From IMG/VR virus record IMGVR_UViG_2545824714_000009: a stretch of 7,977 nucleotides of DNA; one strand, 5' to 3'. The position numbers and the translations under genes were made by a program. The notes beneath the pieces are model-generated. The model had not been told where the DNA came from. It ran no database searches and was given only the letters and a program-made list of their open reading frames with translations. The DNA comes from a virus (taxonomy: Duplodnaviria; Heunggongvirae; Uroviricota; Caudoviricetes). Below are positions 1 to 7,977 of this stretch, one piece after another; position 1 is the stretch's first letter, and every line of letters begins with the position of its first letter.

Positions 1-583
<583 letters not shown>

Positions 584-676
584 TTTGTTCTCCACGTATA
601 TGCGCTGCACCGCGCTGAATTCTGGTAAAAAGAATCCCTCACCATCCGGCGATTATTGAGTAAATTACGTTTCCAT

Positions 677-698
677 AAATGCCCCCGCAGGGGCATTT
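677..698 (-). terminator. GC-rich hairpin just 3' of the yfdQ-like gene; possible weak intrinsic terminator or RNA-stabilising stem
   Basis: AAATGCCCC (677-685) and GGGGCATTT (690-698) form a 9-bp stem with a 4-nt loop, 13 nt downstream of the yfdQ-like stop. The U-tract on the minus strand is short (AUUUAU), so terminator function is uncertain. Confidence 0.35.
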
Positions 699-710
699 GC
701 AGTAATGAAA

Positions 711-1535
711 TCAGGCGGTGAAAGTACCAATAAAGGTTTCTACTTTGCTGTCCTTGAATTTCTCAACAAGCAGATCACGAAATTCGTTAGCCATTTCTTC
801 CTGCACCGCCTCCAGCTGAATAATGCGCAGAACCAGTACCGGACGATCGCCAGTGATAATGCTGAGGCGTAATTTAAACGGACGTTCTTTCAGACCTTCA
901 AACGGAATGCATTTAAATTCAAATGCCACTGGCATAATGTCTTTGGTCTTCGCTTCGACAGACTCCATCAGGGAGCGTTTGCCGCTGAAGTCATTATCTT
1001 CAAAATCAGCGGTCTGGTTTGCTTCAATCGTGATTTTACGGACCGCCGCAGCCGCTTTTGTTGCCTGAATGGTGTCACCATTAGCATCAAAGCCCACAAG
1101 GTAGTCGGCCCAGTCTTCAATCCATTCTGCCAGTGATTTCTGGGAGTTACGCTCGCCATTAACAGACAACAGAGCAGAGAACGGTGCTGTCTTTTTCAGT
1201 TTGAGAGTGGCGGTGTTATCTGCGTGACCTGGTTCATCAATAGTACCCAGGTTAAGCACACTGACGGCTCGCATATTATCAGCATCGATAAAGCAGCGGG
1301 TGCCTTCATCTGCAAGATCTTTAGAATAACGGGTAAAGTCATCGATGCTGGCAGTGGAAAGCGCACCACGGAAACGGAAGCGATTTAAATTAAATTTTTC
1401 CAGATCATGAATGCGGAAATTCTCAGGCAATGCCACAGCATCGGCACCAATCTTACTGATAATTTCATTAACACCCTGAGCAGAAATAAGGGCATGGATT
1501 TGATTAATTGCGGTTGTGTCTAAGTTCTGAGACAT
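711..1535 (-). CDS. yfdQ: YfdQ-like prophage protein of unknown function (DUF2303-type), 274 aa
   Basis: Long minus-strand ORF with GAGG 7 nt upstream of the ATG at 1535 and protein-like composition throughout. Length and position (between yfdP-like and yfdR-like genes) match the CPS-53 yfdP-yfdQ-yfdR arrangement as I recall it. Confidence 0.8.
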
Positions 1536-1600
1536 AATAAGTCCTCACTATATAAAGATATTCAGTGATGAGATAAATAATCAGTTAATTAAGAACGATA

Positions 1601-1963
1601 TTAATGACCTGCTGCGCGGAGTTTTCCGTCAGGTTCACCGGCAAGAGTCAGTAATTGTCCCTGGTCTTCCTGCAGAATAGTCAGGCGACCACCGCGATTG
1701 ACATACATCGGCGTTTCGGTGGTGTCTTCTTCGGAAATTTTCCCGCGGTTAGTCGGGCGAACATATGAGAGTTTGTGTTTGATTTTCACACGGTTCTCAT
1801 CAAATGGTTCGATTTCCAGGTTGAGTGAGACCTTACCTTTGGTTTTCGTGTTCATCACACCGGAAGCGACTTCACTGAGAACTGCGCCGATTTTGGTTTC
1901 AAATACGCCGCCGTCCAGCTCCCCGATAAATGCCTGTACATCAGTACTGCGTTCGCTAGCCAT
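1601..1963 (-). CDS. yfdP: YfdP-like small prophage protein, 120 aa, unknown function
   Basis: Minus-strand ORF. The ATG at 1963 is preceded by GAGGAG with a 7-nt spacer (two further in-frame ATGs lie 18 and 21 nt upstream). The 226-aa ORF in the track (to 2281) is an in-frame extension into GC-rich non-coding sequence (Arg/Cys/Pro-rich translation). Confidence 0.6.
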   Translation of the reverse strand: MASERSTDVQAFIGELDGGVFETKIGAVLSEVASGVMNTKTKGKVSLNLEIEPFDENRVKIKHKLSYVRPTNRGKISEEDTTETPMYVNRGGRLTILQEDQGQLLTLAGEPDGKLRAAGH

Positions 1964-2011
1964 TTTGCTGCTCCTCATCATATCGACCCTGCAAGGCCGA
2001 TTAGTTTCTCC

Positions 2012-2100
2012 ACAAAACAGAGAAGAACACCTGCGGTGGCAGCCGCCCGGATGGATTGGGTTATGAGCCCGTCGTCCGGTGATGCTCTTCTCTGTTTTGT
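2012..2100. repeat. Perfect 15-bp inverted repeat ACAAAACAGAGAAGA / TCTTCTCTGTTTTGT flanking a 59-bp GC-rich spacer
   Basis: Read directly: 2012-2026 is the exact reverse complement of 2086-2100. It sits about 50 nt upstream of the yfdP-like start on the transcribed (minus) strand, so it would form a long stem in the leader RNA. Confidence 0.7.
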
Positions 2101-2145
2101 AAAAAGGACGGTACCAGCCGGAAGCAAGGGTACAAACTGGTACCG
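2101..2145 (-). terminator. Candidate intrinsic terminator/attenuator within the leftward operon leader
   Basis: On the minus strand, CGGUACCAG (2145-2137) pairs with CUGGUACCG (2117-2109) as a 9-bp stem around a 19-nt loop, followed by UCC and U5 (complement of the A-run 2101-2105). The loop is large for a canonical terminator. Confidence 0.4.
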
Positions 2146-2400
2146 CCAGGACTACACACAGCATAAAGTTGTGGTGCCGGGTGCCTCCCGGTGCCTGGCG
2201 AAGGTTGCACACCAGACGGGTGGGTATCCACAGAAGGTCGACTGTCAGCCTCAACCTTAACCCGCGTGCGCTGAGCCGCATTCACCACAACGCTAAGGAT
2301 TCTCTTTGGTTGAAAATACTTAGCTGTTATGTGCCTGTCTTTTCACCACTTCAGGCTCGGTGGTATCCTTTTAAGCCCGTATACATAAAAGGAAAATCAA

Positions 2401-2646
2401 ATGACTTTTGATGAAAAAGAACTTGATAATGCAATTAATAAAATCATCGTAACGTCGCTCTTTTCCTGTCTCAGCGACACTCAGCAGAAACAGTTCTACG
2501 AATCGGCTTTCAACATGATCGAGCGTTGTTGTTTCTGCGATGCCGACGAGTTACCTGAAAAAATCAGGAAACAGTTGGCTGATGCTCTTCGAGTGCGACT
2601 TTCTGACCAATTTTCTGAAATGTGCTCTCCGAATTTGGACAAATAG
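2401..2646 (+). CDS. Hypothetical small protein (81 aa), oriented against the leftward early operon; possible moron
   Basis: ATG at 2401 preceded by AGGA with an 8-nt spacer; protein-like composition (MTFDEKELDNAINKII...). No family recognised and no clear sigma-70 promoter found upstream. Confidence 0.5.
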   Translation: MTFDEKELDNAINKIIVTSLFSCLSDTQQKQFYESAFNMIERCCFCDADELPEKIRKQLADALRVRLSDQFSEMCSPNLDK

Positions 2647-2839
2647 AAAAAGGCCATTTCCATTCAGGGTCTGATGGAAATACTTCAGCCTGTTCCAAAG
2701 CACGGCGTAAAGAGAACACAACTCCAGCCATAATCTGATGTTTCCCATTGGTCCAGCTATCGCCGCTCTGATCTACAGGGGCGGCTATGTCGTATGACCA
2801 AACGACTTCACAGTTATTGTTTAAAATCTGGACTTTCAT
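2564..2839 (-). CDS. Hypothetical small acidic protein (91 aa), first gene downstream of the putative PL/OL region
   Basis: Minus-strand ORF. The ATG at 2839 is preceded by AGGTG with a 6-nt spacer (an alternative ATG at 2860 has a weaker RBS). The N-terminal part looks protein-like (MKVQILNNNCEVVWSYDIAAPVDQSGDSW...). The 3' 83 nt overlap the convergent plus-strand ORF, so the true C-terminus is uncertain. Not Arg-rich, so not N-like. Confidence 0.45.
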   Translation of the reverse strand: MKVQILNNNCEVVWSYDIAAPVDQSGDSWTNGKHQIMAGVVFSLRRALEQAEVFPSDPEWKWPFSICPNSESTFQKIGQKVALEEHQPTVS

Positions 2840-3046
2840 TTCATACACCTGCTTTAACATGAGTGCCTAGTGGCACAACATGACTCAACGAATCATCCTG
2901 GACTTCATATGCCCCAGGCGGCTACTTCGTGGGCGTCCTGCCTGTTCGTTTTTGACATTTACTGACTGCTTACGACACATGCACCGTGTTGCAACCAGAT
3001 TTTGTTGTAATCCTGTAGTTGGTCTGGAACAAAAGATAAAATTAAA

Positions 3047-3083
3047 TTGCGAGACATGCAAGTGATATTTGCGAGATATGCAA
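3047..3083. promoter_or_regulatory. Putative OL operator pair (two 15-bp near-palindromic sites) with the likely PL promoter
   Basis: TTGCGAGACATGCAA (3047-3061) and TTGCGAGATATGCAA (3069-3083), 22 bp centre to centre, share the TTGCG-N5-(A/T)GCAA architecture with the site at 3851-3865 between cI and cro. They lie just beyond the cI terminator, where OL/PL sits in lambdoid phages. Confidence 0.5.
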
Positions 3084-3096
3084 ATTTATAGGTAAT

Positions 3097-3117
3097 AAAA
3101 AGCCACCTTTCGGTGGC
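3097..3117 (-). terminator. Intrinsic terminator downstream of the repressor gene
   Basis: Minus-strand RNA GCCACC-GAAA-GGUGGC (6-bp GC stem, GNRA tetraloop; 3117-3102) followed by UUUUUAUU (3101-3094), 21 nt after the cI stop. Confidence 0.65.
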
Positions 3118-3137
3118 CGATGGATGGGATATTGAGG

Positions 3138-3830
3138 TTAATTATGTCTCTTAAGGGTTTGCGACTGACTGATTAAGACCTTTCCAAAGACCATGAATCG
3201 GTGTTCGTTTTCGCTAGTAATTCCCCATTCACGGTAAATCTGGTTATCAGAAATCACCAGCAGTTTGTCAGGAATCATTTGAAGTCTTTTAACGTATATT
3301 TTGTCATCAAAACCAAAGACATATATACCATCACCATCAAACTGATTGATGCTGACATCAACGAAGATGAGATCTCCGGGCTCAATGGTTGGACACATAC
3401 TGTCCCCACGAACGTTGATAACTTTGATGTGATTGGCTGGTCGTCCGCCGAACATTGATACAGCATTATCAGTTCTGTATTCGATGGCATGAATCACATC
3501 AATGACATCACCGCCCTGGATAAGGCCATTTCCCGCACTGGCACTGATATCCAGCATTTCAATACGGAACACATCCTTCACCTGCGCAACATCCTCATTA
3601 TTACTGTTTTTATATACAGTATTACTTTTGTGGGCAGAGGTAAAGAGATCAGCAATATCAACACCTAAGCTCTTGGCAATATTACTCAGTGTTTGTTCGG
3701 TAAATTGTTTTTGCTTACCCGTTTCTAAGCGCGAGATGTTCGCCGCATCTACTCCTATCGCTTCAGCGAGATCGGCGATTTTCATGTTCTTCGCTTGGCG
3801 AAGTTGTCTGACTCGGTTTCCTATGTTCAT
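3138..3830 (-). CDS. cI: CI-like prophage repressor: N-terminal XRE-type HTH plus C-terminal S24 (LexA-like) autopeptidase domain
   Basis: 230-aa ORF. N-terminus RVRQLRQAKNMKIADLAEAIGVDAANISRLETGKQ is an XRE-type HTH; there is an Ala-Gly candidate cleavage site (SASAGNG), a catalytic Ser in GDSM and a Lys in YVKRL. It is divergent from a Cro-like gene. No SD upstream; the -10/-35 spacing suggests a leaderless mRNA. Confidence 0.9.
   Translation of the reverse strand: MNIGNRVRQLRQAKNMKIADLAEAIGVDAANISRLETGKQKQFTEQTLSNIAKSLGVDIADLFTSAHKSNTVYKNSNNEDVAQVKDVFRIEMLDISASAGNGLIQGGDVIDVIHAIEYRTDNAVSMFGGRPANHIKVINVRGDSMCPTIEPGDLIFVDVSINQFDGDGIYVFGFDDKIYVKRLQMIPDKLLVISDNQIYREWGITSENEHRFMVFGKVLISQSQTLKRHN
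3602..3621. promoter_or_regulatory. Near-consensus LexA (SOS) box located inside the cI coding sequence
   Basis: TACTGTTTTTATATACAGTA matches the E. coli LexA box consensus TACTGTATATATATACAGTA at 18 of 20 positions, with intact CTGT-N8-ACAG. It is the only CTGT-N8-ACAG in the window and encodes TVYKNS in the CI inter-domain linker. Confidence 0.45.
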
Positions 3831-3927
3831 GCGTTTATTACATTTCTTTATTGCGTGATAAGCAAATCAACTTGCGCAAAATAATTGCGTGAAATAACAT
3901 GCATAACGCGCAATATTTGGAGGGCGT
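3831..3927. promoter_or_regulatory. Divergent immunity control region (OR-like operators, PRM-like and PR-like promoters)
   Basis: Operator-like site TTGCGTGATAAGCAA (3851-3865), palindrome TTGCGCAA (3872-3879) and further TTGCG/CGCAA half-sites (3885-3889, 3909-3913). Leftward promoter candidate: -35 TTGCTT, 17-bp spacer, -10 TGTAAT at -12..-7 relative to the cI ATG. Rightward candidate: -35 TTGCGC (3872-3877), 17 bp, -10 TAACAT (3895-3900), then GGAGG SD 5 nt before the cro ATG. Confidence 0.6.
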
Positions 3928-4188
3928 ATGCAATCACCATTACGAAATGTGCGTAAGGCGCATGGTTTCACTTTGCAGCATGTTGCTGCGGGTGTTCAAG
4001 TCAATCCAGCGACGTTGAGTCGTATTGAGAGGCTGGAGCAGATTCCATCTATCGAGCTTGCAGAACGTTTAGCCAATTTTTTTAAGGGTGAAGTCAGCGA
4101 AATGCAGATTCTTTATCCGGCACGTTTTCAATCTAGCCAAAACCAGAATGGGTTTAAACCACAGGAACAGGAGGTGAACCGTGGGTAA
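3928..4188 (+). CDS. cro: Cro-like HTH regulator (86 aa)
   Basis: ATG at 3928 with GGAGG 5 nt upstream. N-terminal HTH (GFTLQHVAAGVQVNPATLSRIE); divergent from the CI-like gene across an operator-bearing region. Confidence 0.8.
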   Translation: MQSPLRNVRKAHGFTLQHVAAGVQVNPATLSRIERLEQIPSIELAERLANFFKGEVSEMQILYPARFQSSQNQNGFKPQEQEVNRG

Positions 4189-4732
4189 GCATCACTGGAA
4201 AGTAGAAAAACAGCCTGAGTGGTACGTGAAAGCTGTCAGAAAAACTATCGCAGCGTTGCCGGGGGGGTACGCTGAAGCTGCTGACTGGCTGGATGTAACA
4301 GAGAACGCATTATTTAACCGCCTTCGTGCCGATGGCGATCAGATTTTCCCGCTGGGATGGGCAATGATTTTGCAACGTGCTGGTGGAACTCACTTCATTG
4401 CTGACGCTGTGGCGCAGTCTGCAAATGGCGTCTTTGTGTCTCTTCCTGATGTCGAGGATGTGGACAACGCCGATATCAACCAACGCCTGCTGGAGGTCAT
4501 TGAACAGATCGGCAGTTATTCAAAACAGATTCGTTCAGCAATCGAAGACGGTGTAGTGGAACCGCATGAGAAAACTGCAATTAACGACGAGCTATATCTC
4601 TCAATTTCGAAGCTGCAGGAGCATGCAGCACTGGTCTACAAAATCTTTTGCATTTCAGAAAGTAATGACGCCCGCGAGTGTGCAGCTCCGGGCGCCGTGG
4701 CGTGTCGTGACTGTGGAGAAACTAACGCATGA
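4181..4732 (+). CDS. CII-position early protein (183 aa); possibly YdaT/CII-like regulator, with a C-terminal Cys cluster
   Basis: GTG start at 4181 preceded by AGGAGGT with a 5-nt spacer, overlapping the cro stop by 8 nt. Sits directly after cro. C-terminus contains CxxxxxxxCxxC ([12 protein letters not shown]). Family assignment is from recollection and context only. Confidence 0.7.
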
Positions 4733-5067
4733 ACAGTTTAACAACACACTACCGTCGCTCGCAACTGATTGCGCTTCCTGTACCGGGTGGAAAAGCGAAG
4801 GTGGAGTATTGCTATGCAGTAAATGTACCAGGTGACAGGGAAATTGTAACCCACAGCTTTGCAGAGTGGGCTGTGGGTGATTTCAACCGGCAGAAGGAGA
4901 CAGTCCTTTGCGACAAGTTAACCGCTGGTTCAAAGATCACTACGGAGTGCCCGTCAGAGTCATTCGTTGGGAACCGGAAACACAACGGGTTATCTACCTC
5001 CGCGAAGGCTATGAGCATGAGTGCTTCAGTCCGCTCGAACAGTTTCGTCGTAAATTCAGGGAAATAG
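4729..5067 (+). CDS. Hypothetical early protein with likely disrupted reading frame (frameshift candidate or two overlapping small genes)
   Basis: ATG at 4729 overlaps the upstream stop (ATGA). The first ~63 codons look protein-like (…[38 protein letters not shown]), then the frame becomes Ser-rich. The other frame from ~4908 to 5087 reads as genuine protein ([54 protein letters not shown]) and has AAGGAG 9 nt before a TTG at 4908. Confidence 0.4.
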
Positions 5068-5076
5068 AGGTCGGTC

Positions 5077-6018
5077 ATGAGCACTAAATTAACCGGCTAT
5101 GTATGGGATGGTTGCGCAGCGTCAGGCATGAAATTATCCAGCGTGGCAATTATGGCCCGCCTGGCTGATTTCAGTAATGACGAAGGTGTGTGCTGGCCAT
5201 CAATTGAAACCATTGCCCGTCAGATTGGCGCGGGGATGAGTACCGTCAGAACGGCTATCGCACGGCTGGAAGCAGAAGGCTGGTTAACGCGTAAGGCGCG
5301 TCGCCAGGGTAACCGCAATGCGTCGAATGTTTATCAGCTTAACGTTGCGAAGCTTCAGGCAGCGGCATTTTCTCAACTGTCAGATTCTGACCCGTCAAAA
5401 TCTGACGCATCAAAATCTGACCCGTCAAAATTTGATGCGTCGAAATCTGGCAAAAAAGCGGGTTTTCACCCGTCAGAATCTGGCGGGGATCCGTCAGTAA
5501 AATCAAAACATGATCCGTCAGATAAAAAAACTTCTCGTCCGGACGCTTCGCAACCGGACACGCAGACGGCTGAACAGGAGTTTTTAACTCGCCATCCTGA
5601 TGCGGTTGTATTCAGCCCTAAAAAGCGCCAGTGGGGAACGCAGGATGATTTGACCTGCGCACAGTGGCTCTGGAAAAAAATCATCGCCCTGTACGAGCAG
5701 GCCGCCGAATGTGACGGCGAGGTGGTTCGTCCCAAAGAACCGAACTGGACAGCCTGGGCAAACGAAATTCGCCTGATGTGTGTGCAGGATGGTCGTACTC
5801 ATAAACAAATCTGCGAGATGTACAGCCGCGTCAGTCGCGATCCGTTCTGGTGCCGTAACGTGCTCAGCCCGTCGAAGCTGCGGGAAAAATGGGATGAGCT
5901 TTCCCTGCGCTTATCGCCGTCCGTCAGCACGTACACCGAAAAACGCGAAGACCCGTACTTCAAAGCCAGTTACGACAACGTGGACTACAGCCAGATCCCG
6001 GCAGGATTCAGGGGGTGA
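5077..6018 (+). CDS. Phage replication initiator: N-terminal winged-HTH domain, internal repeat region, DnaT-like C-terminal domain
   Basis: 313-aa ORF with GAGG 7 nt upstream. N-terminus (…WPSIETIARQIGAGMSTVRTAIARLEAEGWL) is HTH-like. The C-terminus ends …DYSQIPAGFRG, resembling the C-terminal end of E. coli DnaT as I recall it (…SQIPPGFRG). An iteron array lies inside the gene, as in lambda O. Confidence 0.85.
   Translation: MSTKLTGYVWDGCAASGMKLSSVAIMARLADFSNDEGVCWPSIETIARQIGAGMSTVRTAIARLEAEGWLTRKARRQGNRNASNVYQLNVAKLQAAAFSQLSDSDPSKSDASKSDPSKFDASKSGKKAGFHPSESGGDPSVKSKHDPSDKKTSRPDASQPDTQTAEQEFLTRHPDAVVFSPKKRQWGTQDDLTCAQWLWKKIIALYEQAAECDGEVVRPKEPNWTAWANEIRLMCVQDGRTHKQICEMYSRVSRDPFWCRNVLSPSKLREKWDELSLRLSPSVSTYTEKREDPYFKASYDNVDYSQIPAGFRG
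5386..5530. repeat. Iteron array plus A-rich tract inside the replication gene: candidate origin of replication
   Basis: 15-bp periodic units TCTGACCCGTCAAAA / TCTGACGCATCAAAA / TCTGACCCGTCAAAA / TTTGATGCGTCGAAA (5386-5445), with further CCGTCAG cores at 5470, 5491 and 5515, followed by GATAAAAAAAC (5521-5531). The coding-level equivalent is a DPSKS/DASKS pentapeptide repeat. Confidence 0.65.
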
Positions 6019-6020
6019 GC

Positions 6021-6509
6021 ATGAGTCTTTTGAATGACGTTCAGAAATTCATTGAAGCCCATCCGGGCTGTACTTCCGGAGATATTGCGGATGCTTTTGC
6101 CGGTTACTCACGGCAGCGCGTTCTGCAGTCAGCAAGCAAGTTACGTCAGAGTGGGCGTGTGGCTCACCGTTGTGAAGGAGATACACGCAGACATTTCCCG
6201 CGCCTGACTGAGAGAGCGCAGGAACCGGAACCACAACCAGTTCGTGAAACCAGACCTGTGCGCAATTTCTATGTCGGCACTAACGATCCCCGTGTGATTT
6301 TGTGCCTGACCCGCCAGGCGGAAGAACTGGAGTCCAGGGGCTTATACCGTCGTGCTGCAACCGTGTGGATGGCGGCATTCCGTGAAAGCCACTCCCAGCC
6401 AGAACGAAACAATTTTCTGACGCGTCGTGAGCGGTGCTTACGGAAAAGCAGCAAGCGCGCTGCATCGGGTGAAGAGTGGTATCTGTCAGGGAATTACGTG
6501 GGGGCTTAA
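6021..6509 (+). CDS. Regulator with PerC/Pch-like C-terminal region and an N-terminal winged-helix-like extension
   Basis: ATG at 6021, 3 nt after the replication gene stop, with a G-rich SD. The motif AEELESRGLYRRAATVWMAAF…RRERCLRK resembles the PerC/Pch signature as I recall it; the N-terminal ~45 aa look like a small winged helix. The track's start at 6015 is a GTG that overlaps the upstream stop. Confidence 0.7.
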   Translation: MSLLNDVQKFIEAHPGCTSGDIADAFAGYSRQRVLQSASKLRQSGRVAHRCEGDTRRHFPRLTERAQEPEPQPVRETRPVRNFYVGTNDPRVILCLTRQAEELESRGLYRRAATVWMAAFRESHSQPERNNFLTRRERCLRKSSKRAASGEEWYLSGNYVGA

Positions 6510-7162
6510 TGAGTAATAAATATTGCCAGGCGCTGGTGGAACTGCGGAACAAACCAGCCCATGAACTGAAGGAAGTGGGCGATCAGTGGCGCACGCCGGA
6601 CAACATTTTCTGGGGAATTAACACCCTGTTTGGCCCGTTTGTTCTGGATCTGTTCACTGACGGTGATAACGCCAAATGTGCCGCGTATTACACGGCGGAA
6701 GACAACGCGCTGGCGCATGACTGGTCAGAACGTCTTGCGGAGCTTAAAGGTGCTGCCTTTGGTAATCCCCCATACAGCCGCGCCAGTCAGCATGAGGGGC
6801 AATACATCACCGGCATGCGTTACATCATGAAACATGCCAGTGCCATGCGTGATAAGGGCGGGCGCTATGTTTTCCTGATCAAAGCTGCCACCAGCGAAGT
6901 GTGGTGGCCGGAAGATGCAGATCATATTGCTTTTATTCGCGGGCGTATTGGTTTTGAACTGCCTGTCTGGTTTATCCCGAAAGACGAGAAGCAGGTACCG
7001 ACAGGAGCTTTTTTCGCTGGTGCTATTGCTGTTTTTGACAAGACCTGGAAGGGACCGGCAATCAGCTACATCGGGCGCGATGAACTTGAGGCATGTGGTG
7101 AGGCGTTTCTGGCGCAGGTTCGCCAGCAGGCGGAAAAACTGGTCAGGGAGATGGCGGCATGA
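6509..7162 (+). CDS. Phage Dam-family DNA N6-adenine methyltransferase (orphan; no restriction partner in window)
   Basis: ATG at 6509 overlaps the upstream TAA (translational coupling; alternative GTG at 6476). Contains the NPPY catalytic motif (FGNPPYSR) and WRTPDNIFWG…FVLDLFTD, typical of phage Dam-type methyltransferases. Confidence 0.85.
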   Translation: MSNKYCQALVELRNKPAHELKEVGDQWRTPDNIFWGINTLFGPFVLDLFTDGDNAKCAAYYTAEDNALAHDWSERLAELKGAAFGNPPYSRASQHEGQYITGMRYIMKHASAMRDKGGRYVFLIKAATSEVWWPEDADHIAFIRGRIGFELPVWFIPKDEKQVPTGAFFAGAIAVFDKTWKGPAISYIGRDELEACGEAFLAQVRQQAEKLVREMAA

Positions 7163-7485
7163 CGACGTTAACTCAATGCCAGCAGCAGGTGCTGGATATG
7201 CTGATTTCTTATCAGAAAGAACGTGGCTTCCCGCCAACCAATCAGGAGGTGGCAACCATGCTGGGATACCGTTCGGTGAATGCAGCGGTGGAGCATCTTC
7301 GCGCACTGGAGAAAAAAGGCGTCATCACGATAAAGCGTGGCGTGGCCCGGGGGATAACGCTTCATACCGCGGTGAAGGACGACGACAGCGAGGCGGTCGG
7401 GATTATCCGCGCACTGCTTGCCGGTGAGGAAAACGCAAGGCTGCGTGCAACCCACTGGTTACATGAGAGGGACCTGAAAGTATGA
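7159..7485 (+). CDS. LexA N-terminal DNA-binding-domain homolog lacking the S24 autocleavage domain (108 aa)
   Basis: ATGA overlap with the Dam stop; AGGGAG 8 nt upstream. LTQCQQQVLDMLISYQKERGFPPTNQEVATMLGYRSVNAAVEHLRALEKKGVITIKRGVARGITL aligns closely with E. coli LexA residues ~5-70 ([65 protein letters not shown]), including the recognition-helix SxNAAxEHL. The following ~40 aa have no Ser/Lys peptidase motifs. Confidence 0.8.
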   Translation: MTTLTQCQQQVLDMLISYQKERGFPPTNQEVATMLGYRSVNAAVEHLRALEKKGVITIKRGVARGITLHTAVKDDDSEAVGIIRALLAGEENARLRATHWLHERDLKV

Positions 7486-7763
7486 AGCTGATCCTGCCTT
7501 TTCCGCCCAGCGTGAACACGTACTGGCGACACCCCAACAAAGGGGCGTTTGCTGGTAAGAGCCTGATAAGCGCGGCGGGGCGAAAATTCCAGAGCGCGGC
7601 GTGCGCAGCAATAGTTGAGCAGTTACGTCGTCTGCCGAAACCAACGTCGGCACCTGCTTCAGTGGAGATCGTGTTGTTTCCTCCGGATAGACGGGATGGA
7701 AAACCGCCGCCATCGCCTGAACTGGGAAATGAGCCGGGACAGGTGTTTGCGGCTTGGCAGTAA
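7482..7763 (+). pseudogene. rusA: RusA-like Holliday-junction resolvase, N-terminal ~72 aa only; catalytic DxD region missing
   Basis: ATGA overlap with the upstream stop. LPFPPSVNTYWRH…VEIVLFPPDRR matches the RusA N-terminus (LPWPPSNNRYYRH…IRIECHMPDRRRRDLDN), but after PDRRD the translation becomes GKPPPSPELGNEPGQVFAAWQ, lacking the catalytic Asp residues. This is consistent with an IS junction near 7698. Confidence 0.6.
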
Positions 7764-7977
7764 CCGGCTCATTTAAACCGTCTTGTCTGTTTCCTCCGGC
7801 TCTACAAAAATAATGTCCATCATTTTTAATGGACACTATCGTATGAAACACCGGACCTGGATCACTGAAGCTTTACGTCTTCACTTTGAAGAACATTTAC
7901 CCCGGGTTGTGGCCGGGCGTCGCCTGGGTGTACCAAAATCAACAGTTTGTAGTATGTTCGTGCGCTTTCGGAGAGCT
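7698..7977 (+). mobile_element. Left end of a second insertion sequence (probably IS21-family, distinct from the one at the window start); boundary approximate
   Basis: Placed where the RusA homology stops (~7698) through the start of a transposase-like ORF at 7843. CCGGCTC is repeated at 7764-7770 and 7795-7801. No confident terminal repeat identified. Confidence 0.35.
7843..7977 (+). CDS. Transposase N-terminus (HTH), probably IstA of an IS21-family element; 3' end outside the window
   Basis: ATG at 7843, open to the window end: MKHRTWITEALRLHFEEHLPRVVAGRRLGVPKSTVCSMFVRFRRA. The pattern resembles IstA N-termini of the IS1326/IS408 group as I recall them. Not in the ORF track because no stop falls inside the window. 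Confidence 0.45.
   Translation, partial: MKHRTWITEALRLHFEEHLPRVVAGRRLGVPKSTVCSMFVRFRRA

Follow-up and report, generated by a model that had tools for sequence, protein, structure and literature searches.

The gene at positions 5077-6018 of the window (the whole 7,977-bp stretch of DNA that was analysed) encodes what by its sequence is a lambda-O-type replication initiator, in which the P-associated tail has been replaced by the C-terminal tail of the host protein DnaT. Among the loci compared, tail type and loader type are statistically associated in both directions, and the tail of this SfIV/CPS-53-type initiator is, on a narrow balance, probably a docking peptide for the host DnaB-DnaC complex. 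In the literature searched, the terminal peptide is nowhere described as a portable module that specifies the loader. If the proposed role is wrong, the gene is an ordinary prophage initiator that is itself already catalogued.

Genomic setting and predicted origin

Bases 352-7977 of the window are 100 % identical to a prophage located beside tRNA-Ser in strain E1739, and at least 80 % of the window is present in 246 complete E. coli genomes. These matches identify the window as the early region of an E. coli lambdoid prophage, one of the CPS-53/SfIV type. The initiator gene is already catalogued as SfIV gp41, its product being 100 % identical (tblastn) to SfIV_41, the protein named 'replication protein' in Shigella phage SfIV, and the yfdO remnant of CPS-53 in E. 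coli K-12 is a homologue. The start codon at 5077 has GAGG 8 nt to its 5' side, and the protein matches PHROG 391 ('replication initiation O-like') over its full length (E 2e-135). [quoted passage not shown] The features of the window are as follows:

Ahead of the repressor gene, minus strand: yfdQ/yfdP-type genes
3138-3830, minus strand: S24 cI-like repressor
3928-4188: cro-like HTH gene
4181-4732: YmfL/CII-like gene
Between the YmfL/CII-like gene and the initiator: small ORF
5077-6018, plus strand: initiator coding sequence of 313 aa, ATG 5077 to TGA 6018 (ORF list, tblastn to SfIV, PHROG 391)
5143-5286, plus strand: winged-helix DNA-binding domain, aa 23-70 (Pfam HTH_36, E 4e-11)
5379-5484, no strand assigned: iteron array, six copies of the 13-bp palindrome GTCARAWTCTGAC (motif count, TRF)
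5488-5535, no strand assigned: two GATCCGTCAG(T/A)AAA repeats and an A-rich run adjoining the iterons (direct repeat D8, sequence)
5572-5916, plus strand: helical C-terminal domain of the lambda-O C-terminal type, aa 166-280
5956-6015, plus strand: DnaT-type C-terminal tail, aa 294-313, ...PYFKASYDNVDYSQIPAGFRG (BLASTP, hhalign, conservation in DnaT orthologues)
6015-6509, plus strand: yfdN-type gene with an N-terminal winged helix and a C-terminal PerC/ANR-like domain (Pfam, NCBIfam, PHROG, RefSeq)
6476-7162: Dam methylase
7159-7485: LexA-DNA-binding-domain protein
After the LexA-DNA-binding-domain gene, last gene of the window: truncated RusA

The initial annotation had described a winged-HTH N-terminus and iterons within the initiator gene, as in lambda O, and both were borne out. 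The N-terminal domain belongs to the HTH_36 family, with weaker winged-helix matches to GntR, MarR and DnaD_N, and is presumed to read the iterons. The palindrome GTCARAWTCTGAC gave 11 strand-matches at six sites compared with 0.69 expected, and 11 or more were reached in 0 of 200 shuffles. Its copies start at 5379, 5394, 5409, 5424 and 5439, with an exact spacing of 15 bp, and at 5472, and TRF reported a period of 15 with 4.3 copies. The array encodes the Ser/Asp-rich linker SDSDPSKSDASKSDPSKFDASKS of the initiator. The GC content falls to 0.43 at 5480-5539, and the repeats at 5488-5535 are a candidate unwinding flank of the predicted origin.

By tblastn (35 % identity, E 4e-18), residues 131-277 align as homologues with the C-terminal half of lambda O, and the helical C-terminal domains of the two proteins are homologous. 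In an AlphaFold2 model that covers aa 166-313, with a mean pLDDT of 86.7, a confident helical domain extends to about aa 280 and is followed by a low-confidence, flexible tail region (pLDDT 50-65). The modelled fold is consistent with the replisome-organiser type (DnaD/G39P-like proteins compared), a weak assignment. Lambda O is likewise an origin-binding initiator with iterons inside its own gene, and its gene, like that of the window initiator, lies behind cII-like genes in the early right operon. It differs in its N-terminus, which is of the Phage_rep_O family shared with Gifsy-2, and in its iterons, those of the window being 13-bp palindromes at 15-bp spacing. It also ends in ...LDLTNTDWIYGVDL where the window protein carries the DnaT-type tail, and is followed by the P gene, whereas no P gene lies downstream of the window initiator.

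Extent and distribution of the DnaT-type tail

The C-terminus of the window protein, ...SYDNVDYSQIPAGFRG, and that of E. coli K-12 DnaT as translated from the genome, ...NTVSEPDSQIPPGFRG, are identical at 8 of 9 positions at their extreme ends (SQIPAGFRG and SQIPPGFRG; pairwise BLASTP E 0.009). When a profile of 16 tail-bearing sequences, made up of the window's own and 15 relatives, was compared with DnaT 160-179 using hhalign, 20 columns were aligned with a probability of 95 % and an E value of 3e-8. BLASTP of the window protein against DnaT found nothing beyond the tail: the N-terminus is a winged helix and not the oligomerisation domain of DnaT, and a match to the acidic PriB-binding linker of DnaT is likewise absent. 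The Pfam model PF17948 for DnaT, a three-helix DNA-binding domain for which positive controls gave E 1e-18, did not match the window protein. A profile of the C-terminal core (aa 183-285), built from 130 sequences comprising the window protein and diverse relatives from a search of 1.84 billion proteins, had no similarity to DnaT 84-160 (hhalign probability 0.1 %). By these comparisons the likeness to DnaT is significant and specific, and is confined to the last ~20 residues. The profile search that the initial annotation had proposed returned a significant match in the tail, and its description of a DnaT-like C-terminus stands for these residues and not for residues 190-313 as a whole. Its 'DnaT-mimicking domain' is not upheld, as aa ~166-280 are homologous to lambda O.

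Among DnaT orthologues the tail hardly varies, and in the tail-bearing relatives IPxGFRG is fixed behind a variable linker. Some of these relatives match DnaT over more residues (...RDINRISRPDSSVPPGFRG compared with ...RDVNTVSEPDSQIPPGFRG in DnaT), and the motif is present twice in two proteins. The tail behaves as a portable peptide, being found on at least four unrelated C-terminal domains. Lambda-O-like domains carry it in the window protein and at loci L114 and L145. Among 136 representatives of this C-terminal family (50 % identity clusters), 14 end in ...[IV]PxGFRG, at least 21 have a lambda-O-type tail (NTDWxxG... or HWNxxEAWExxL), and the remainder end otherwise. The initiators of loci L224 and L199 share the N-terminus and iteron linker of the window protein, to which they are 81 % identical over aa 1-165 only, and combine them with a Phg_2220_C domain and the DnaT-type tail. 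In SPN1S-type initiators the tail follows a true DnaT domain (63 % identity to DnaT 86-179). The tail also occurs on initiators of the mEp460 gp43/SfV type, on Rac YdaU and POCJ13 gp16, and on Gifsy-2 O behind a Phage_rep_O N-terminus, and the C-terminus of P1 RepL, ...KEKEFYIPTGFRG, is of the same type.

A likeness of this length might be a relic of recombination between a prophage and the dnaT locus, or a matter of chance, with no function in common; lambdoid phages are highly mosaic, and the pairwise E value is only 0.009. The profile E value of 3e-8 speaks against this explanation, as does the strong conservation of the tail in DnaT orthologues and in many phage families. Moreover, in viral contigs 164 of 200 matches to the IPxGFRG-stop pattern marked the end of an initiator ORF 180 aa or longer, while a scan of bacterial genomes, used as a background control, gave genuine tails in only 3 of 120 matches. 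A relic or a coincidence is accordingly very hard to credit.

Loader genes and tail type

The start of the gene at 6015-6509 overlaps the initiator stop (GTGA). Its product is not a recognisable loader and matches PerC (PF06069) at aa 100-151 (E 5.6e-9, 36.6 bits compared with a gathering cutoff of 22.6), NCBIfam ANR (E 3e-5) and PHROG 1324, in agreement with the earlier view that the next gene is PerC-like and not a P or DnaC-type loader. The initial annotation had also held that a loader gene directly downstream in the complete element would speak against its proposal, and none was found in SfIV. Using lambda P, two other P-family proteins, five DnaC-type proteins, E. coli DnaB and P22 gp12 as tblastn queries, no homologue of lambda P (PF06992), DnaC or DnaB was detected in the window or in the complete 39.8-kb SfIV (best E 0.03, short fragments), and no helicase or loader is present among the 54 genes of SfIV. 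Loader detection here means homology to a limited reference set of lambda P, DnaC-like and DnaB-like proteins, and a loader of an unrecognised type is conceivable in the phages with solo initiators. SfIV is UV-inducible, forms plaques and lysogenises (PMC3851460), and a phage carrying this initiator thus replicates without a recognised loader gene. The SfV-type phage mEp460 has a different initiator, of which the last 33 residues are the same as those of the window protein. It is followed by PerC-like, Dam, LexA-like and RusA genes, as in the window, and the 8-kb early region contains no annotated loader.

It is conceivable that a phage loader does exist, that DnaB delivery falls to the winged-helix/PerC-like protein of 6015-6509 or to some other early gene without annotation, and that the tail is incidental. 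A wHTH-PerC-like gene does overlap the initiator stop in the window, in mEp460 and at 76 IMG/VR loci. Elsewhere, however, winged-helix genes of the DUF1627 and DUF977 types fill the same slot behind lambda-P or DnaC-like loaders, which indicates that the slot is a general one and no substitute for a loader. The SPN1S-type and P1 RepL solo initiators have no PerC-like neighbour, and in E. coli RepL by itself suffices for plasmid replication (PMC9948254). The PerC-like gene was judged unlikely to be a hidden loader, given the winged-helix genes behind bona fide loaders and the solo initiators that have no PerC-like gene, and delivery of DnaB by any concealed phage loader is highly improbable.

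The association between tail and loader was examined by scanning IMG/VR DNA for IPxGFRG-stop and for NTDWxxG, and by reading the ORFs and their neighbours. The former scan fixed Arg as CGN together with the stop codon and so left out AGR-coded tails, the window's own included; the latter gave 48 genuine initiators, which were filtered from noise by ORF context. Both samples were drawn with codon-restricted DNA patterns, and nearly all of their loci are enterobacterial. Initiators with a DnaT-type tail and at least 1.2 kb of downstream sequence (n = 139) were in no case accompanied by a lambda-P gene, and one had an adjacent DnaC-like gene; for the other 138, homologues of P, DnaC and DnaB were absent within 4 kb on either side. 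A PF06992 P gene overlapped the stop codon of every lambda-O-type-tail initiator evaluated (44/44). The raw Fisher p value is 2e-43, and after clustering of the initiators at 50 % identity the P gene accompanies 0/11 compared with 6/6 (p = 8e-5).

In the reverse direction, an initiator ending in GF[RKTV]G precedes 143 of 150 phage DnaC-like loader genes (150 evaluable loci, 12 clusters at 80 % identity). The tails concerned are GFRG (127), GFKG (4), GFTG (11) and GFVG (1), and the remaining seven are PxF[NS] (3), IPEDF (3) and one truncated end. The rare variants each pair with their own loader cluster. These phage DnaC-like proteins are ~50 % identical to E. coli DnaC, and the host dnaT-dnaC operon is arranged like Rac ydaU-ydaV, initiator first and loader second.

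Several pairs of initiators are alike in body and differ in tail. The initiator of locus L383 joins an NTDW tail to a DnaT-type domain that is 51 % identical to DnaT 82-162, and a P gene comes next; its relative L152/SPN1S has a DnaT domain with a DnaT tail and no P gene, and the same DUF1064 and Ead/Ea22-like genes lie behind both. In L327, a C-terminal domain of the window type (42 % identity, aa 165-278) ends in NTDWINGVFDEKSF and is followed by P. Lambda O and Gifsy-2 O have a common Phage_rep_O N-terminus and different tails; the gene behind lambda O is P, and the one behind Gifsy-2 O is DnaC-like. P22 gp18 has a third kind of tail, and its partner is the phage's own DnaB-like gp12. These body-matched swaps indicate that the tail predicts the loader, and that the DNA-binding and globular C-terminal domains do not. 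Part of the association reflects shared ancestry, adjacent genes being inherited together, an effect that dereplication and the mosaic swaps lessen and do not abolish. Across the phages compared, the tail marks initiators that use a DnaC-type loader, their own or probably that of the host, and not a lambda-P-type one.

The initial annotation had suggested that the phage recruits the host primosome or loader route. The loader half of this suggestion is favoured, since the tail tracks DnaC-type loaders, phage-encoded or host, and the primosome half is not, as the comparison of genomes does not tie the tail to PriB or the preprimosome.

Proposed docking role and related systems

In E. coli, DnaB is delivered by DnaC. 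In lambda, the C-terminal part of O contacts P, as established by hybrid-phage and biochemical work in the 1970s-80s. The N-terminal part of P is stated to bind O (PMC4926192). In the mechanism proposed for the window protein, the N-terminal winged helix would bind the six iterons within the coding sequence, the helical C-terminal domain of the lambda-O type would organise the complex, and the tail, D-x-x-I-P-x-G-F-R-G-COOH, would act as a portable docking peptide that links a protein bound at an origin or at a fork with a DnaC-type loader, that is, with DnaB6-DnaC6. The iteron-bound initiator would in this way recruit host DnaB6-DnaC6 directly and the phage would need no loader gene. A lambda-O-type initiator would thereby have been re-routed by its DnaT-type tail. 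Physical binding of the tail to DnaC or DnaB-DnaC is suggested by correlation, and a search of the PDB gave no structure in which the tail contacts a partner. For the mature complex, the deposited DnaT chain stops at residue 154, and the tail is unmodelled.

According to the literature, the mechanism by which the preprimosome recruits DnaB6/DnaC6 is unknown, and no direct contact of DnaC with PriA, PriB or DnaT has been demonstrated (PMC11087952, PMC13377028); the authors of the preprimosome structures speculate on the N-terminal domain of DnaT (PMC13377028). The tail might dock onto PriA and/or PriB instead, with the initiator assembling a preprimosome at the phage origin and replacing or recruiting DnaT. 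DnaT belongs to the preprimosome and makes contact with both PriA and PriB (PMC13377028), and the tail is the sole part of the window protein in common with it. In the cryo-EM structures, however, these contacts are made by the globular C-terminal domain of DnaT (with PriA) and by its acidic linker (with PriB) (PMC13377028), and a target in PriA or PriB does not predict that the phage tail lies near-invariably beside DnaC-type loader genes. Docking onto PriA or PriB is therefore distinctly improbable.

Alternatively, the tail may recruit no partner and may aid ssDNA binding by the C-terminal domain, or its self-association, on the unwound origin, a role already suggested for DnaT 154-179. Deletion of DnaT 154-179 lowers ssDNA affinity and cooperativity about two-fold, the Kd for dT30 being 27 μM with a Hill coefficient of 2.1 for DnaT 84-153, compared with 9.9 μM and 2.7 for DnaT 84-179 (PMC4132743). 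Such a role fits poorly with the retention of the tail on at least four unrelated globular domains, with its strictly terminal position as the most conserved element behind a variable linker, and with its presence or absence tracking loader type and not domain type. A tail that is portable, terminal, conserved and loader-tracking has the properties of a docking motif, and a role confined to ssDNA binding or self-association is rather unlikely.

The docking reading can be extended beyond SfIV. More tentatively, and with somewhat less than an even chance, the ...PDxxIPxGFRG-COOH peptide would serve enterobacteria and their phages generally as the signal for docking to DnaC-type loaders and would be the missing element by which PriA-PriB-DnaT recruits DnaB6-DnaC6, dnaT-dnaC would be a domesticated phage initiator-loader pair, and a tail swap would suffice to re-route initiators. 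SfIV gp41, Rac YdaU, Gifsy O, SPN1S Rep and P1 RepL would then all reach the host helicase via the tail, and exchange of DnaT-, lambda-O- or P22 gp18-type tails would re-route an initiator among the DnaC, lambda-P and phage-helicase pathways. The handover from PriA-PriB-DnaT to DnaB-DnaC in E. coli is an acknowledged gap (PMC11087952, PMC13377028), for which the phages offer a natural experiment, the same ~20-residue tail being grafted onto many unrelated initiators. As a small and mutable candidate interface, the tail would make the link between DnaT and DnaB/DnaC testable. Docking would also explain solo initiators without a loader gene, including the widely used P1 RepL amplification module, and would make the helicase-loading route of a lambdoid replication module predictable from the last residues of its initiator.

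DnaT and the window protein have in common the last ~20 residues with the IPxGFRG-COOH end, and both must hand DnaB-DnaC to a DNA site. They differ in that DnaT has the PF17948 domain and an N-terminal oligomerisation domain, both lacking in the window protein, and acts at a PriA/PriB-bound fork, whereas the window protein is predicted to recognise a specific origin sequence. In addition, dnaC adjoins dnaT in the host operon, and no dnaC-like gene lies beside the window initiator. The Rac YdaU-YdaV, Stx/POCJ13 and Gifsy-2 modules share with the window the DnaT-type initiator tail and the lambdoid early-operon position, and differ in having their own DnaC homologue directly downstream, which is absent from the window element.

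The replication protein of Salmonella phage SPN1S and P1 RepL are solo initiators, each being the product of a single initiator gene, with a DnaT-type tail and no phage loader, as in the window. The SPN1S protein differs in its complete DnaT domain. P1 RepL further resembles the window protein in that the origin lies within the initiator gene, and in E. coli it functions on its own (PMC9948254); it differs in having only a weak HTH_36 match (E 0.007) and no lambda-O-like domain. The DopC-DopE system of Cellvibrionales/Oceanospirillales (Brezellec 2017, PMC5509034) resembles the window protein in its HTH_36 N-terminus, its descent from a lambdoid O-type gene and its DnaT-related sequence. DopC differs in that the DnaT-related part is the globular C-terminal domain of DnaT, its partner is a P-type loader, and the system is chromosomal and no longer an origin (PMC5509034). 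Automatic annotations label some relatives of the window initiator 'primosomal protein I', so that the resemblance has been picked up by pipelines, if not interpreted.

DnaT-type tails in RepL and in other initiators

The DnaT-type tail, in the form ...KEKEFYIPTGFRG, is also the end of RepL, the lytic replication initiator of P1-type phage-plasmids, as read on the 280-aa ORFs of six IMG/VR loci (L248, L252, L255, L266, L299 and L308). A plasmid gene annotated as 'repL' (H112, CP056621.1 10392-11231) is 99.6% identical to these RepL ORFs across all 280 residues. RepL alone drives plasmid replication in E. coli, and its mode of action has been described as unknown (PMC9948254).

The tail motif is doubled in tandem in two initiators, the tail-bearing relative P0291 and that of IMG/VR locus L236, which read ...IPKGFRG...IPHGFRG and ...IPAGFRGARQERDINQISEPDSTIPPGFRG, respectively. 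Deviant initiator tails were found upstream of a few DnaC-like loader genes (IMG/VR loci L645, L695 and L704, and L685, L707 and L710). These tails read ...EFIPEDF or ...KPPEFN/KPAGFS, with a distinct loader cluster for each deviant tail among the DnaC-like loader loci, and the former recalls the C-terminal DDDIPF of SSB.

Genes around the initiator

Two predicted ORFs overlap in different frames at 4729-5087 (+), just 5' of the initiator:
4729-5067, +, 112-aa ORF of PHROG 1170, orf40 in the SfIV annotation
4908-5087, +, 59-aa ORF, DUF4222 according to the RefSeq annotation

In almost every lambdoid module sampled, the gene or genes for replication are directly followed by a small winged-helix gene (PerC-like, DUF1627 or DUF977), which occupies this slot regardless of loader type. 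Examples are window 6015-6509, gene cluster D1 of IMG/VR (e.g. locus L212), and clusters D9, D12 and D19 in lambda-P-containing loci.

Further 3', the position of a LexA-like gene after the Dam gene is kept in this prophage module:
7159-7485, +, LexA-type DNA-binding-domain protein of 108 aa (Pfam LexA_DNA_bind, E 3e-19)

The DNA-binding domain makes up the whole of this protein, and the S24 protease domain is absent from its 108 residues.

Ends of the window and state of the prophage

The following ORFs were considered at the two ends and in the left arm:
100-285, +, left-end ORF
329-610, -, left-end ORF
1601-2281, -, long ORF comprising a yfdP-like C-terminal part and an upstream stretch
7482-7763, +, RusA-type resolvase ORF, similarity ending after about 70 residues

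Window positions 1-351 are unlike the best-matching prophage, whose match begins at 352, and encode the C-terminus of an IstB-like ATPase of the IS21 family. A yfdR-type 5'-deoxynucleotidase gene appears to have been truncated here through IS insertion; for YfdR, both DnaA binding and inhibition of initiation have been reported (PMC4776307). The upstream stretch of ORF 1601-2281 is a separate frameshifted pseudogene according to RefSeq, and the joining of this stretch to the yfdP-like part suggests that the left arm of the prophage is decaying. The prophage is probably defective 3' of the replication module; the RusA-type gene is annotated as truncated in the matching genome, where it is followed by an IS66 element.
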